57,506 nucleotides of DNA from Candidatus Magasanikbacteria bacterium CG10_big_fil_rev_8_21_14_0_10_47_10 (GTDB taxonomy: Bacteria; Patescibacteriota; Patescibacteriia; Magasanikbacterales; UBA922), in the NCBI GenBank assembly GCA_002773135.1, contig PFCB01000016.1:1-57506 (forward strand), read 5' to 3'. A program made the position numbers and the translations under genes. The notes under the pieces are model-generated. The model ran no database searches. It was not told the DNA's origin and worked only from the letters and a program-made list of their open reading frames with translations. Of the stretch, positions 1 to 52,746 are shown piece after piece. Positions within the stretch are counted from its first letter, which is position 1, and each line of letters opens with the position of its first letter.

Positions 1-1484
1 ATATTCTTCTCAACCACGGCCGGTTCAATTCTCTCGACAGGATCAGTTTTTACCGGTTGGATTTTTTTCACACCGTCAACAGGATTTGAAAGCGGGAGAA
101 TTTTCTTCTTTGCGAGCTGCTCACGCCATGTCTCACGTGTAAACAAGGTATCGCGCTCTGTTTCTTTACCGGTTTTGCTGGGACTTAGCCGAAGCATGCC
201 AAGATCATTAAGACCTACGACAGTGGCAATCTTGATGTTACCGTCGTCATCTTTCAAATAAAACTGGTCACCAATTTGTAGTTTTCCTTCATATCGATCA
301 AGCGTGACCTTAGCGCGCTCCGCGTTTTTCGTGACTGACAAATCCGTTGAGGAACTTCCTCCGACGTCTCCGGCGCCTTTCACATTTCCTTTGGCTTCAG
401 TCTCCTTCCTGCTATACAATTCAGCGTCCGAAAGCGATATTGGCACGCGCAGATTTTTATCCACAGCGTCCGAATTTGATGGCCAAAACTCCTTTTTCGC
501 AACAATAACAAATCTATCAGCCAGTTGTTCTGGAGTAACACCTCGCCCTGTTAGATCAGCTGTTAAGGCAGGCATCTGCCGAATTTTGTAGAGCAAATCT
601 GACAATGGGTAGGTATTTTTACCCACCTGTACATAGCAGACACCGTCCTTTAAACTTGTCTTTCCGCCAAACTGTGATTTGATCCATTCATCGATAAATG
701 TCTCCGTTTCGGCCTGCTCTTCTATACCATCGGTCTTTCCCTCGGTTCCACTACTGTCCGCCTGTTTCTCTGCCATTTCCTCCTGCGTACGTGCCGGCGG
801 ATGGAGCTTCATGCGCCGTAATGCGCCAACATCTGAAATCAAAAACGGCCGGCCTTTACCATCTTTTCTCTTTAATCTCACAGAACGCGCACCAGTATCA
901 ACAGCAACTATAATATACTCCCCTGTTCTGCCGCCTGTCGTTGTATAATCAACTTCATCGCCTGCATGCAAATCTTCCATGGGAAACGAAGTCTGCTCAG
1001 TCCCACTATCAGGGGGCGCCTCTGATGGTTCAATTGCAAGCTCCGCATCCGGTTGATCTTTTGGAGCAGCCACTCCGGGCTGTATATCCGCCTCACCTTC
1101 AAGGATAAAACGCTTCACGTCTCTCACAGTAATAGTGGTCCTTTTCTCGGCAATTTCCTCTAACAAAGATACTGCTGTTTTAAGACGATCCGCCCTGTCC
1201 ATGAGGAGATCAAATTTTCTTCTTAAATCCTGCACATCATGATCTTCAAAATCAACATTGTCGAAACGGTCAATGTCCTTTTTGAGCCGGTCAATCACAG
1301 GAATAAGTGATCGTGTACTTATTTTTTTTGTGAGTTCACGCGACATTGCAGTCAGAGCAGGCGGCAGCTGCTTGAGACTTTCCAGCATCCTGCGGTAATC
1401 CGGAGCAGCCGGCGGAACGCCGCGCGCCTCGGTAACTTTTTGTAATCCGGATTCAAATCGTTGATGTGGAGTTAGTTGAGCCAT
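1..1484 (-). CDS. Large hypothetical protein, 3'-truncated by the window edge (>=494 aa)
   Basis: Not in the ORF track because it has no stop in the window. ATG at 1484 (MAQLTPHQRFESGLQKV...); the frame was open in every segment I translated down to base 1. Confidence 0.8.
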   Translation of the reverse strand, partial: MAQLTPHQRFESGLQKVTEARGVPPAAPDYRRMLESLKQLPPALTAMSRELTKKISTRSLIPVIDRLKKDIDRFDNVDFEDHDVQDLRRKFDLLMDRADRLKTAVSLLEEIAEKRTTITVRDVKRFILEGEADIQPGVAAPKDQPDAELAIEPSEAPPDSGTEQTSFPMEDLHAGDEVDYTTTGGRTGEYIIVAVDTGARSVRLKRKDGKGRPFLISDVGALRRMKLHPPARTQEEMAEKQADSSGTEGKTDGIEEQAETETFIDEWIKSQFGGKTSLKDGVCYVQVGKNTYPLSDLLYKIRQMPALTADLTGRGVTPEQLADRFVIVAKKEFWPSNSDAVDKNLRVPISLSDAELYSRKETEAKGNVKGAGDVGGSSSTDLSVTKNAERAKVTLDRYEGKLQIGDQFYLKDDDGNIKIATVVGLNDLGMLRLSPSKTGKETERDTLFTRETWREQLAKKKILPLSNPVDGVKKIQPVKTDPVERIEPAVVEKN

Positions 1485-1493
1485 ATATAAAAA

Positions 1494-1679
1494 TTAATCT
1501 TCTTCTATCTCCAAAATATGTTCAAGCGTCCGCTTGGTTTCTATTTTTTCCTTATACGAACGAACGCGCTCGGATAGAGCGAGCGCGTCATCTGCCAACT
1601 GATCAATCTCGTCAGACAGCTGTGTATACAGCTTAGCGAGCTGCACTTTGTCTTCTTCTGTCAATGTTTGAGAAGGCAT
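1494..1679 (-). CDS. Small hypothetical protein (61 aa, probably coiled-coil)
   Basis: ORF track; tightly packed with co-oriented neighbours; helical, charged composition. Confidence 0.7.
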   Translation of the reverse strand: MPSQTLTEEDKVQLAKLYTQLSDEIDQLADDALALSERVRSYKEKIETKRTLEHILEIEED

Positions 1680-1685
1680 AGAACA

Positions 1686-2006
1686 CTACTTTGCCAAAAG
1701 CCGTTTTACATCTTCTGCAAACGACAGCAATATCATTTTTATTTTTTCATCAAAATTTGGTACTGCCATATACCAAAACTCTTGCCACTCTTCTGTGGTG
1801 GCGGCCGGCCTATCTAAAAGCTGACTAAAAGCATCCATTTTTTCTGTGTCCAATGTTGGAAGCAACTCAATGCCAATGCGCTGCTCCAGCTGTGACAAAA
1901 GCTGTGGAACATAAAAGTTCATCTGTTCTTCTGAAAGTTTCATGTCATTTTCTTGAAGCAGCTGAACTATGTACTCGCCTAAAAAATCTACCTGTGTCTG
2001 TGCCAT
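1686..2006 (-). CDS. Conserved CPR-type hypothetical protein (DUF5663-like)
   Basis: 106 aa acidic helical protein ending W..AVPNFDEKIK.IL..F, resembling small CPR proteins; family name from recall only. Confidence 0.55.
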   Translation of the reverse strand: MAQTQVDFLGEYIVQLLQENDMKLSEEQMNFYVPQLLSQLEQRIGIELLPTLDTEKMDAFSQLLDRPAATTEEWQEFWYMAVPNFDEKIKMILLSFAEDVKRLLAK

Positions 2007-5328: not shown

Positions 5329-5719
5329 GGGGATGACAGGCTTCGATAGACGGATCCTGTTATCTGTATTTGCGTGTCGAGGGTGGCTTCCCTCGTACTC
5401 CAAAGCCAATCGATACGTGCAAACGTTATCACCCGAGCAAAGAACGCGTTGGCGCAAGCTTTTAGCGTTCCACAACTCGCAGCTGTTGTCGCGTAATTGC
5501 CACAACCATCGCTCTGATCATACTCGATAGTCAGAAACCGGTGTCAACCCAATCGAGCGTAGATGCGTGTGCCGCCTGATCACACCCATTGAACTCCTAT
5601 TCGGGCGCCTCTTGCACATTTTGTCACTTTCCAAAGTGTTAAGAGTACACAAATTGACTACACACGTAGACGGTACAGATAACCCGCGCTAGACCCGAGT
5701 TCAATTCTCGGCATCTCCA
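5329..5719 (+). ncRNA. ssrA: tmRNA; tag ORF 5419-5496 encodes ANVITRAKNALAQAFSVPQLAAVVA*
   Basis: 5' GGGGATG pairs with 3' CATCTCC+A; T arm ccgag-ttcaatt-ctcgg; GCA AAC resume codons; lies directly after smpB. CCA is not encoded. Confidence 0.95.
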
Positions 5720-5841
5720 CGAAAAATGGCGCAGCCATTTTGAGTGTCACGTGAGACCCGCAGGGTCTTTTACGTGACATCGTTACAATATTGACCAACG
5801 GCGCCATCTCGTGGCTCGCCGTGTGTATCAAAGAAGGGGCT

Positions 5842-6162
5842 ATGTATTATATTGTTTATGTACTTCAATCAAAAAAATACCCACACCGCAAGTACATTGG
5901 CTACACGGCAAATTTACAAAAAAGAGTGAAGATACATAATAGCGGGATGGTACACTCCACAAAAAAATGGAAACCTTGGATTCCTATTTATGCAGAGATG
6001 TACCTGGAAAAGCTGGACGCTCTTGGTAGAGAAAGATTTTTGAAGAGCGGATCAGGATGGAAATATATAAAAAAACAATTACGACACTATTTGAAACACC
6101 ATGAGAATCTCACGAAAGAAGCGACCAAAAAAACTATTGATCCCACACTACGCGATCAATAG
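5842..6162 (+). CDS. Small stand-alone GIY-YIG nuclease (UPF0213/YhbQ-like)
   Basis: YIVYVLQS...KYIGYT.NL.KR...HN.G...TK..KPW...Y.E......A..RE..LK motif set. Likely start ATG 5842; the 3' end overlaps infC by 62 nt. Confidence 0.9.
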   Translation: MYYIVYVLQSKKYPHRKYIGYTANLQKRVKIHNSGMVHSTKKWKPWIPIYAEMYLEKLDALGRERFLKSGSGWKYIKKQLRHYLKHHENLTKEATKKTIDPTLRDQ

Positions 6163-8186: not shown

Positions 8187-8232
8187 GGACCGGTAGTTCC
8201 CGCCAGAGGCGGAGCCGTCCTTCAGCGGACAA
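8187..8232 (+). repeat. Partial 5' copy of tRNA-Asp with the D-loop replaced by a palindrome
   Basis: ggaccggtagttc is identical to the first 13 nt of the tRNA, followed by ccgcc-aga-ggcgg, agc, then gtcc-ttcagc-ggac. Confidence 0.75.
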
Positions 8233-8258
8233 CAGGTCATTAAGATAGAGAAAAAGGC

Positions 8259-8332
8259 GGACCGGTAGTTCAACTGGTTAGAGCACCGCCCTGTCACGGC
8301 GGAAGTTGCGAGTTCGAGTCTCGTCCGGTCCG
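8259..8332 (+). tRNA. tRNA-Asp(GTC)
   Basis: Acceptor GGACCGG/CCGGTCC; D arm; anticodon arm ccgcc-ctGTCac-ggcgg; T loop ttcgagt; CCA not encoded. Confidence 0.97.
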
Positions 8333-8349
8333 CCTTTTTCTCTAAACGA

Positions 8350-8403
8350 GCCCTGCCTGCCCCGCCAACCGACCGAAGGGAGGTTCGGCAGGGCCCGGTC
8401 CGC
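8350..8403 (+). repeat. Nested palindromes followed by a copy of the tRNA-Asp 3' end
   Basis: cctgcctgcc...aaccgaccgaagggaggtt...cggcagg, then ccggtccgc (the tRNA acceptor 3' strand). Confidence 0.65.
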
Positions 8404-52064: not shown

Positions 52065-52245
52065 TAGAGTGAAAAATAGGGCAATTTAGGTTCCCATTAT
52101 ACCCCCTTTCGGACAAAAATGCAAATATGAAAAAAAACAGCGAAATACTGCTTTTTTGGACATACTACAGCTCCTTTTCCCGTGTGGTAAACAGAGTCAT
52201 GGAATCAAAAGTGGGACCTTCTTCTTACCAGATATACCCCCCCTG

Positions 52246-52325
52246 CATAGTGGGCGATCCAAGAATCCCTGCCTGCCGGCAGGCAGGGAACTTGGGACAT
52301 TCCCGCATCACGTGCGGGACGCTCT
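52246..52325 (-). pseudogene. tRNA-Ile-derived 3' fragment with a 20 bp palindrome in the T loop and a substituted anticodon arm
   Basis: catagtgggcgatccaagaatc is identical to 52500-52521; cctgcctgccggcaggcagg (52268-52287) is inserted between TTC and GATT; the anticodon arm is replaced by tcccgc-N7-gcggga. Confidence 0.8.
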
Positions 52326-52504
52326 GTCCATAGAGGCTATATAGTAGTCTATTAACTGAGGCGGCAGCTTCCTTTTCTTTTCTTTTGTTTTATTTTTTAT
52401 TCGAATGATCTTGCGACAACAATAGAATCAAACCACCAACATCCTATCAAAACCATGGCCATTTTTTTCGCTTGCAAGCAGATAGAGAATCCCCCTCTTC
52501 ATAG

Positions 52505-52578
52505 TGGGCGATCCAAGAATCGAACTTGGGACCTCTACATTATCAGTGTAGCGCTCTAACCATCTGAGCTAATCGCCC
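52505..52578 (-). tRNA. tRNA-Ile(GAT)
   Basis: GGGCGAT acceptor; ctaca-ctGATaa-tgtag; ccaag-ttcgatt-cttgg; CCA not encoded. Confidence 0.97.
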
Positions 52579-52601: not shown

Positions 52602-52632
52602 GGGACCTTCCCGCATCAAGCGCGGGACGCTC
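52602..52632 (-). repeat. tRNA-like anticodon-arm repeat, copy 2
   Basis: Minus strand gagcg-tcccgc-gcttgat-gcggga-aggtccc; the flanks equal tRNA-Ile GAGCG...AGGTCCC. Confidence 0.75.
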
Positions 52633-52641
52633 ATCGCGCCG

Positions 52642-52715
52642 TGGACTTAAGTGGATTCGAACCACTGACCTCTACAATGTCAATGTAGCGCTCTAACCAA
52701 CTGAGCTATAAGTCC
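52642..52715 (-). tRNA. tRNA-Val(GAC)
   Basis: GGACTTA acceptor; ctaca-ttGACat-tgtag; agtgg-ttcgaat-ccact; CCA not encoded. Confidence 0.97.
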
Positions 52716-52718
52716 ATT

Positions 52719-52746
52719 GACCTTCCCGCAATTTCGCGGGACGCTC
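52719..52746 (-). repeat. tRNA-like anticodon-arm repeat, copy 3
   Basis: Minus strand gagcg-tcccgc-gaaatt-gcggga-aggtc, ending 3 nt before the 5' end of tRNA-Val. Confidence 0.75.

Follow-up and report, generated by a model that had tools for sequence, protein, structure and literature searches.

A pseudo-tRNA-Ile with a 20-bp palindrome in its T loop, and the probable remains of a tRNA-linked GIY-YIG cassette, in a Magasanikbacteria genome

How does a bacterial tRNA gene come to be followed by a crippled copy of itself, and how does a perfect palindrome come to sit inside the T loop of that copy? The question is raised by a tRNA-Ile locus in contig PFCB01000016.1 of Candidatus Magasanikbacteria bacterium CG10_big_fil_rev_8_21_14_0_10_47_10 (assembly GCA_002773135.1), the whole 57,506-nt stretch of which is called the window here. 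The genome is a metagenome-assembled genome (MAG) of 1.04 Mb in 36 contigs. We label it G000 and its contigs C1, C2 and so on; other G numbers denote other genomes, and L numbers denote loci or relatives outside G000. The 20-bp palindrome is referred to as PAL. We propose, with a probability of roughly 0.7, that this feature represents the downstream end of a mini cassette, degenerate and tandemly repeated, which is linked to a tRNA gene and built around a GIY-YIG nuclease gene, and that PAL is a separate, dispersed module.

The copy that carries PAL reads GTCCCAAGTTC[CCTGCCTGCCGGCAGGCAGG]GATTCTTGGATCGCCCAC on the tRNA strand, and the intact gene reads GTCCCAAGTTCGATTCTTGGATCGCCCAC. Comparison of the two leaves exactly 20 extra bases between C56 and G57 (TTC / GATT), with boundaries that cannot be shifted, and reveals no target duplication at the PAL junction. 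The original prediction had described just such a perfect 20-bp palindrome at this point of the T loop, as well as an exact 22-nt direct repeat, and both descriptions hold. The 22-mer belongs to a longer direct repeat of 38 nt with 87% identity (52230-52267 and 52484-52521), which was found in a repeat search of the window. The same kind of search returned a perfect, gapless inverted repeat of 12+12 nt at 52266-52289. The PAL 20-mer itself occurs once in the window and gave 0 matches in 100 shuffles; it probably splits a 33-bp direct repeat into 11 + 22 bp.

The same prediction took the copy for a duplicated 3' part of tRNA-Ile. The duplication is real, yet the copy is longer than a 3' fragment, since it reaches through a substituted anticodon arm and a D-arm-like segment to about 52339; its placement also needed restating, in that the PAL-bearing copy comes after the gene when the minus strand, that of the tRNA, is read. 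Its D-arm-like segment, TAGCCTCTATGGACAGAGCG at 52320-52339, stands where the gene has TAGCTCAGATGGTTAGAGCG. Further on, the gene has CTACA-CTGATAA-TGTAG-AGGTC and the copy has TCCCGC-ACGTGAT-GCGGGA-ATGTC. The bases at 52288-52300 comprise ATGTC, the 5' strand of the T stem and TTC, and those at 52250-52267 comprise GATT, the 3' strand of the T stem, the 3' strand of the acceptor and the discriminator. Judged from these alignments, the copy is a nearly full-length pseudo-tRNA in which a GC hairpin replaces the anticodon arm and the 5' acceptor strand is missing. It was not called as a tRNA by ARAGORN or by Rfam at E values up to 10, where only chance microRNA or small nucleolar RNA matches appeared. 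The predicted RNA fold has two strong hairpins, namely the substitute for the anticodon arm and the T stem lengthened by PAL. The 33 tRNA-derived bases that flank PAL show 0/33 mismatches to the gene, as against 5/16 in the trailing bases of the repeat (Fisher p 0.002). This block of identity could reflect recent origin, gene conversion or selection.

We then asked what lies between the two tRNA copies. The original prediction had seen neither an integrase nor a credible open reading frame (ORF) in the 254 bp between the repeat starts. There is indeed no integrase, but the stretch does hold the decayed start of a GIY-YIG ORF. One nucleotide past the tRNA-Ile gene run the codons ATG AAG AGG GGG ATT CTC TAT CTG CTT GCA AGC GAA AAA. 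In the same genome, an intact 82-aa GIY-YIG ORF (C3:20006-20242) starts 1 nt past tRNA-Lys-TTT with MKEGFFYILQSEK. The two starts are identical at 36/47 nt without gaps (E 5e-8), their N-termini at 8/13 amino acids (tblastn, E 0.001), and they have the CCCAC-T-ATG geometry in common. A second relic start follows the pseudo-tRNA directly: the trailer there (ATGCAGGGGGGGT...) matches the tRNA-Lys-linked ORF start at 18/20 nt. Because of this second start, the 38-nt direct repeat extends past the tRNA 3' end to take in 16 nt of ORF start. The order on the minus strand is therefore intact tRNA-Ile, relic ORF, pseudo-tRNA-Ile and second relic ORF start (Table 1). The module 22 nt upstream of tRNA-Ile looks like the middle segment of tRNA-Ile with its anticodon arm swapped for the TCCCGC..GCGGGA hairpin.

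Table 1. Features around the tRNA-Ile gene, in minus-strand order; positions are those of the window.
Feature	Position	Strand	Basis or remark
Module GAGCG-TCCCGC..GCGGGA-AGGTCA	52719-52746	-	3 nt upstream of tRNA-Val; repeat families D4, D5
Intact tRNA-Val(GAC)	52641-52715	-	ARAGORN; Rfam RF00005, 75.4 bits
Module GAGCG-TCCCGC..GCGGGA-AGGTCCCA	52604-52632	-	22 nt upstream of tRNA-Ile; repeat families D3-D5
Intact tRNA-Ile(GAT), functional copy	52504-52578	-	ARAGORN; Rfam RF00005, 73.8 bits
Relic GIY-YIG ORF	52428-52502	-	ATG 1 nt past tRNA-Ile 3' end; truncated; reads MKRGILYLLASEKNGHGFDRMLVV, then stop
AT-rich spacer, presumed remains of ORF body	52340-52427	-	inferred from position only
Pseudo-tRNA-Ile	52250-52339	-	sequence comparison with intact gene
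Hairpin TCCCGC-ACGTGAT-GCGGGA replacing anticodon arm	52301-52319	-	repeat analysis, folding
PAL, 20-bp perfect palindrome CCTGCCTGCCGGCAGGCAGG	52268-52287	.	between C56 and G57, pseudo-tRNA T loop
Second relic ORF start ATGCAGGGGGGGTATATCTGGTAA	52225-52248	-	directly 3' of pseudo-tRNA; part of 38-nt direct repeat
Possible third, more decayed T-arm relic AGGTCCCACTTTTGATTCC (gene: AGGTCCCAAGTTCGATTCT)	52201-52219	-	weak, read from sequence

Relatives offer a view of the same site in other states. The gene order tRNA-Val, tRNA-Ile, lepB is kept in many of them, and in most a plain gap of 19-280 nt follows tRNA-Ile, with G013, G039 and G036 differing. G013 has two tandem units behind its intact tRNA-Ile. 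Both consist of an 86-aa GIY-YIG ORF (Pfam matches at G013:C10:728-949 and 1030-1251) whose end continues into a pseudo-tRNA-Ile, GGGCGTaag-TGGTTAGAGC-A-CGCTCGCCTAGGCGAG-TAATGACGAGGTCCCCGGTTCGATTCCAGGCACGCCCAC, with a 14-nt palindrome standing for the 5' half of its anticodon arm. The intact GIY-YIG ORF of G039 runs into tRNA-Ile, and the 3' fragment of a different tRNA-Ile allele lies downstream and carries PAL. G036 has a small remnant at the site. By comparison with these genomes, the window locus appears to be a decayed version of the arrangement seen in G013 and G039.

Similar arrangements surround other tRNA genes of G000. The genome has nine small GIY-YIG ORFs, at least five of which abut a tRNA gene or the transfer-messenger RNA (tmRNA) gene; the linked ORFs match Pfam PF01541 with E values of 1e-11 to 1e-13, and no NCBIfam family scored above its cut-off for the GIY-YIG ORFs. 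The solved structures closest to the ORF linked to tRNA-Leu are the UPF0213 proteins EF2693 (PDB 1YWL, E 2.3e-5) and BH0048 (PDB 1ZG2, E 1.8e-3), which are likewise stand-alone GIY-YIG domains; unlike the ORFs described here, they have no recorded tie to tRNA genes or to a palindrome. At tRNA-Asn (C2:66) the ORF comes after the tRNA, and the anticodon and T arms of the pseudo-tRNA are replaced by TCCGCCGCGGCGGA and TCCGCCGTGGCGGG. At tRNA-Lys (C3:20030) the ORF is intact and the pseudo-tRNA has a CCCCGC..GCGGGG hairpin and a T-run. At tRNA-Leu-GAG (C4/C25) the ORF lies between a PAL-bearing 5' fragment and the intact tRNA, with PAL on both sides of the ORF. On C15 a decayed ORF lies upstream of tRNA-Gln, which has fragments of itself on both sides, and on C23 a GIY-YIG ORF follows tRNA-Met. 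The C23 ORF, between tRNA-Met and tRNA-Gly-GCC (C23:8127-8650), continues in frame into about seven 39-nt repeats in tandem (GSPGEARGCKA...), which extend as far as tRNA-Gly. The tmRNA gene of the window (5329-5722) is likewise followed, at a distance of about 120 nt, by such an ORF (5842-6162; 106 aa; PF01541, E 3.8e-11), which overlaps the beginning of infC; no second copy of the tmRNA end was noticed. Among 36 small GIY-YIG ORFs in relatives, 8 of about 10 of the MYYVYVLQS type lie flush with a same-strand tRNA gene, and two other types do not. Two traits of these cassettes are present in the window, namely a second, crippled tRNA copy and GC-rich palindromes in its anticodon arm and T loop; of the third, an ORF abutting the tRNA, the window holds a 24-codon relic. 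A keyword search of the literature for tRNA-linked GIY-YIG cassettes, pseudo-tRNA and palindromes of the candidate phyla radiation (CPR) found no description of them.

At least 11/44 tRNA genes of G000 are flanked by partial copies of themselves. Several 5' fragments have other hairpin inserts at fixed positions of the D loop, and their upstream leaders are duplicated too; duplicated leaders together with 5' fragments fit a tandem or cassette duplication and not an integrase crossover. The outer 5' and 3' fragments at tRNA-Leu-CAG are complementary (GCCGGAG/CTCCGGC) and show a compensatory difference from the inner gene (GCUGGAG/CUCCAGC). This suggests that what remains of the resident tRNA encloses an incoming copy, and the different allele in G039 agrees with it. 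We also noted that tRNA-Asp(GTC) in the window (8259-8334) is bracketed by two fragments of its own (8187-8403). In the 5' fragment GGACCGGTAGTTC is followed by the palindrome CCGCCAGAGGCGG, which takes the place of the D loop; in the 3' fragment the T arm is replaced by a hairpin, CCCTGCCTGCC...GGCAGGG, that opens with a PAL arm, and the 3' strand of the acceptor, CCGGTCCG, comes next. The CCGCCAGAGGCGG hairpin also adjoins a tRNA-Leu fragment in the relative L011.

PAL is not restricted to this locus. About 14 copies or near-copies occur in G000. Four intact tRNA genes have a 3' fragment 16-65 nt downstream with PAL in its T loop at TTC/RAT (56/57): tRNA-Arg-TCT (C1), tRNA-Leu-CAG (C7, in a 16-nt form), tRNA-Ile-TAT (C33) and the tRNA-Ile of the window. 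It is also found in the T arm of a tRNA-Glu-CTC fragment (C20), 3 kb from its gene and at the same 56/57 point, in a Ser-TGA-like 3' end at the start of C5 (only partly visible, possibly at 57/58), and, within 5' fragments, in the D arm of tRNA-Leu-GAG (C4, twice) and tRNA-Gly-TCC (C23). Outside tRNA remains, a repeat resembling the NTS hairpin of Neisseria (C30:31630) carries PAL in its GAAA loop, as tgtcattcccgcg[PAL]aaagcgggaatgaca, and many empty copies of this repeat exist. Comparisons of filled and empty sites (T loops, D loops and this one NTS-like element) show a clean insertion of PAL with no target duplication. Six or seven of the eight 3' fragments of G000 that bear a T arm have PAL; the tRNA-Gln fragment on C15 lacks it, so duplication and PAL insertion are separable events. 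A repeat family, TTCGTAATTTCGTA / TACGAAATTACGAA, flanks some PAL copies and the tRNA-Leu-GAG cassette (C4:7950-8050, C30:32080-32140, C35:15110-15180).

Beyond G000, PAL with at most two mismatches occurs in 12/41 related genomes and at very uneven numbers, three genomes having 36, 27 and 26 copies and most of the 41 having 0. When 240 genomes of the order were searched by pattern and the matches inspected, PAL turned up in the T loop of 3' fragments just downstream of intact tRNA genes in five other genera: His (G169, G209), Arg-GCG (G171), Arg-TCT (G216) and an unassigned pseudo-tRNA (G235). The last has the same double design as the window, with a GC hairpin for the anticodon arm and PAL in the T loop. 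The insertion point that the original prediction singled out thus recurs within the genome and in other genera instead of varying at random. In all, PAL interrupts the T loop of at least ten other tRNA fragments, at 56/57 save for two cases that apparently lie at 57/58; in a tRNA-Gly-GCC fragment of G008 it sits one base on, at TTCG/AAT (57/58). PAL is also seen in the anticodon loop (35/36) of a pseudo-tRNA-Gln in two genera and in an anticodon stem in G039. In almost all cases the T stems on either side of PAL match each other, which indicates that PAL entered a T arm that was already complete. No conserved target motif was found beside PAL beyond the T-loop TTC/RAT. Among sampled relatives it often occupies the tip of longer inverted repeats or lies within other repeat modules, and its flanks fold at -12 kcal/mol or lower in 28% of cases vs 7% of random positions (Mann-Whitney p 2.5e-4).

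The distribution of the exact 20-mer is wider still. It occurs in at least 120 contigs from many phyla, including Patescibacteria, Bacteroidota (with cultured isolates), Omnitrophota, Planctomycetota, Proteobacteria, Thermodesulfovibrionales and others; by our own arithmetic, chance would yield about one match in the 596 billion bases of the collection. In this cross-phylum sample most copies are solitary; some lie in D arms of tRNA-Leu, Lys, Val or Met fragments, and some in loops of GTCAT...GATC-type hairpin repeats. Variants of PAL form subfamilies (GGTAGG and 16-nt forms). No paper turned up in a full-text literature search, either for PAL or for its 14-mer core. The cultured Bacteroidota with exact PAL include Winogradskyella, Flagellimonas, Longitalea and Flavivirga (loci L179-L258).

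The closest published analogue of such a pairing of small nuclease and hairpin is the Ssn/NTS system. Ssn proteins are single-domain GIY-YIG proteins of 94 aa that cut single-stranded DNA beside a specific hairpin repeat, NTS/SRM, the loop of which tolerates changes and extensions (Chenal et al. 2025; PMC11893778). The likeness lies in a GIY-YIG-only nuclease of about 80-100 aa accompanied by short, dispersed, GC-rich hairpin repeats, sometimes on both sides of the gene (PAL-ORF-PAL on C4), and in the 14 near-perfect NTS-type repeats (TGTCATTCCCGCGAAAGCGGGAATCCAG) of G000, one of which has PAL in its loop. In the window, the core of the hairpin that replaces the anticodon arm resembles the NTS/dRS3 core and fails the SRM consensus. 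The differences are that PAL is a perfect palindrome without an oriented, GTC-tagged flank, and that the genes described here adjoin tRNA genes and are framed by tRNA copies, whereas the main text of the Ssn paper never mentions tRNA. Moreover, the ORFs here are known by their Pfam PF01541 and UPF0213 structure matches, and their nuclease activity is a prediction. The NTS-type copies lie on C1, C2, C7, C12, C29 and C35 (e.g. C1:20477-20504), often as inverted pairs about 45 nt apart; TGTCATTCCCGCGAAAGCGGGAATCCAG is almost identical to the Neisseria NTS consensus of that paper, CGTCATTCCCGCGMAVGCGGGAATCYRG, a striking match for a CPR genome.

The preferred reading can be put as follows. A cassette would consist of a nuclease gene of about 80-110 codons, encoding a GIY-YIG domain only and lying flush with a same-strand tRNA gene. 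The function of the tRNA would be kept because a second, partial or crippled tRNA copy lies across the ORF, and this spare copy would carry a GC-rich palindrome in one or more of its arms or loops. The cassette would spread in the manner of a homing element without an intron, bringing or duplicating a tRNA copy as it goes. PAL would be a non-autonomous 20-bp palindromic module that is copied wherever a DNA hairpin exposes a single-stranded loop, as in T, D and anticodon loops or at the tip of another hairpin repeat. The putative helper would be a hairpin-specific single-strand GIY-YIG nuclease (Ssn/UPF0213-like), of the kind that the cassettes encode. Entry of PAL would inactivate the spare tRNA and break up the direct repeat, and only those PAL insertions that the host can bear, the ones in dead tRNA copies and other repeats, would last. 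A more specific form of the last steps, which we hold to be possible but doubtful, makes PAL the cognate hairpin of one clade of tRNA-linked, Ssn-like GIY-YIG proteins: a mobile system with no transposase or integrase, in which targets would be chosen by DNA shape and a 20-nt hairpin pasted into extruded loops without target duplication. Such a system would explain how one and the same 20-mer can occur from Patescibacteria to Bacteroidota, Planctomycetota and Proteobacteria.

The association between PAL and these genes is uneven. Across genomes the total number of Pfam GIY-YIG genes bears no clear relation to the number of PAL copies. When only the tRNA-linked subfamily is counted (profile threshold of at least 75 bits), at least four PAL copies are present in 5/15 genomes with the subfamily vs 0/26 without it (Fisher p 0.004), with a Spearman rho of 0.38 (p 0.015), a small co-occurrence statistic that ignores phylogenetic relatedness. 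PAL lies about 25-200 nt from tRNA-linked ORFs, or directly after them, on C4 of G000, C38 of G039 and C50 of G008, in the WWE3 genome L215 and in a few others. Several observations weigh against our reading, in addition to that limit of the statistic. G030, G036 and G013 have many tRNA-linked GIY-YIG genes and no PAL, and the intact cassettes at tRNA-Asn, tRNA-Lys and the tRNA-Ile of G013 use palindromes other than PAL. In the cross-phylum sample a GIY-YIG ORF is found within 600 nt of only 3/83 PAL sites, and among 120 PAL loci from many phyla there is no recurrent neighbour gene, the largest cluster comprising 4 loci. About 60% of PAL sites have no obvious hairpin around them. A regular expression for the SRM consensus (HGTCWY..RNCYNB), which picks out the 14 NTS-like repeats elsewhere in the genome, found no match in PAL with its flanks or in the three hairpins of the window. 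Mobilisation of PAL by the predicted hairpin-specific nuclease is something that we infer. As for the window, its relic ORF is only 24 codons long, and a comparison of the remaining part of the 200-bp spacer with GIY-YIG proteins detected no homology.

What else could have produced the locus? The original prediction likened the layout to a duplicated att site, and an attL/attR pair left by an integrase-borne element in the 3' end of tRNA-Ile, later deleted almost entirely, would account for a direct repeat of the 3' part of a tRNA with an identical 33-nt core and diverged flanks. A 3-kb islet between tRNA-Glu-CTC and its PAL-bearing 3' fragment (C20:14771-17850) also recalls an integrated element, yet this islet has no integrase. 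We consider the att-site explanation very unlikely, and the likeness did not survive comparison: the repeat continues into the start of a GIY-YIG ORF, the copy reaches 5' to the D-arm-like segment, leaders are duplicated with 5' fragments at other tRNA genes, which is not an integrase product, and intact GIY-YIG cassettes occupy the syntenic site in relatives. No recombinase gene lies between or beside the repeats either, the neighbours being lepB, hisS, a KH-domain gene and rpsP. The C20 islet contains a small ORF, a 301-aa ORF (staphylococcal-nuclease-like by eye) and a 427-aa ORF with a start resembling a signal peptide. Poorer still are the prospects of an assembly artefact, a chimeric or collapsed repeat, which we rate as the least credible origin; C4 ends and C5 starts within PAL copies, so that PAL does disturb the assembly of this 36-contig MAG, but the pseudo-tRNA locus is well inside its 57-kb contig, the PAL variants form subfamilies, and the same architecture recurs in independent assemblies of other genera and phyla, isolates included.

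Two further explanations concern PAL more than the cassette, and we find both improbable. One makes it an element of the repetitive extragenic palindromic (REP) type, moved by a REP-associated tyrosine transposase (RAYT, a Y1 HUH transposase), which landed by chance in a tRNA pseudogene and has nothing to do with GIY-YIG genes. Like REPs and the mosaics they form (bacterial interspersed mosaic elements), PAL is short, GC-rich, mostly extragenic and sometimes part of mosaic repeats, and it shows no target duplication; G000 even has a RAYT-like Y1 ORF (C8, about 1100-1755, minus strand; 217 aa; PF01797, E 1.4e-7) with a PAL half-site, CCTGCCTGCC, about 40 nt beyond its stop. However, no PAL was found within about 1 kb of the orthologous RAYT-like genes of relatives, including the PAL-rich G039, and Y1 genes do not track PAL: G008 has 26 copies and no Y1 match, and many PAL-free genomes have matches. 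PAL also lacks the GTAG/CGTC tag typical of REPs (PMC3733652), with 0-36 copies per genome it comes nowhere near the usual REP numbers of more than 100 (PMC2817692), and its insertions lie inside hairpin loops. The RAYT/IS200-like ORF on C8 holds, in frame within its coding sequence, a 44-nt perfect palindrome, CCCGGAGAAGGTTCCCTTCTCTGAGAGAAGGGAACCTTCTCCGGG. The other explanation regards the PAL-bearing pseudo-tRNA as a selected functional RNA or DNA element, be it a processing or termination signal of the tRNA operon, a decoy for integrases or nucleases that target tRNA, or a specificity module of the nuclease. The flawless tRNA bases adjoining PAL, the high share of T-arm-bearing fragments with PAL and the very stable hairpin predicted for T stem plus PAL would suit such a role. 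Recent origin or gene conversion would explain the identity block equally well, though; most relatives lack the element at this locus, and it is sporadic across tRNAs, followed by no U-tract here and matched by no Rfam family. A miniature inverted-repeat transposable element was considered separately and rejected, there being no target-site duplication in filled/empty comparisons and nothing in PAL but two 10-nt arms.

Other known systems share single aspects with the proposed cassette and its palindrome. SegB of phage T4 is a free-standing GIY-YIG homing endonuclease in a tRNA gene cluster (PMC2330249); as proposed here, a GIY-YIG gene among tRNA genes promotes the inheritance of its own region without an intron. 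SegB is, in contrast, a phage enzyme, and the abstract of that paper describes neither a duplicated or crippled tRNA nor a palindromic module (PMC2330249). Organelles provide a parallel for PAL, since tiny GC-rich palindromes spread in their genomes and accumulate at structured RNA genes. In fungal mitochondria GC clusters and PstI palindromes flank tRNA genes. Repetitive hairpin-forming elements are also described from sponge mitochondria (PMC2800124). These organellar elements differ from PAL in being unrelated in sequence and without a known link to a nuclease cassette.

If the cassette reading is right, a widespread selfish cassette, with no report in the literature searched, would live inside essential, conserved genes, and the host would be spared since a replacement tRNA copy comes along with the insertion. 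Identical PAL sequences in very distant phyla are a puzzle of their own. A link between PAL and GIY-YIG proteins would extend the Ssn/NTS principle of single-strand nuclease plus hairpin repeat to a new class of targets, and the cassettes may be a source of new structure- or sequence-specific single-strand DNA nucleases. In practical terms, such relics confound tRNA annotation, the prediction of att sites and genomic islands, and MAG assembly, as contigs break inside PAL. The tRNA genes of this small genome are ringed by debris that follows rules.

Two minor observations concern other contigs. At L055 (G020:C4, about 1420-2015) an IS200-like tnpA is flanked by hairpins, GCAGGCAGT-TT-ACTGCCTGC, the arms of which resemble those of PAL at opposite polarity; this may be a coincidence. 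In G000, ARAGORN called a tRNA-Phe at C9:6643-6716 with the anticodon AAA, not GAA, which may be a miscall, a pseudogene or an unusual tRNA.

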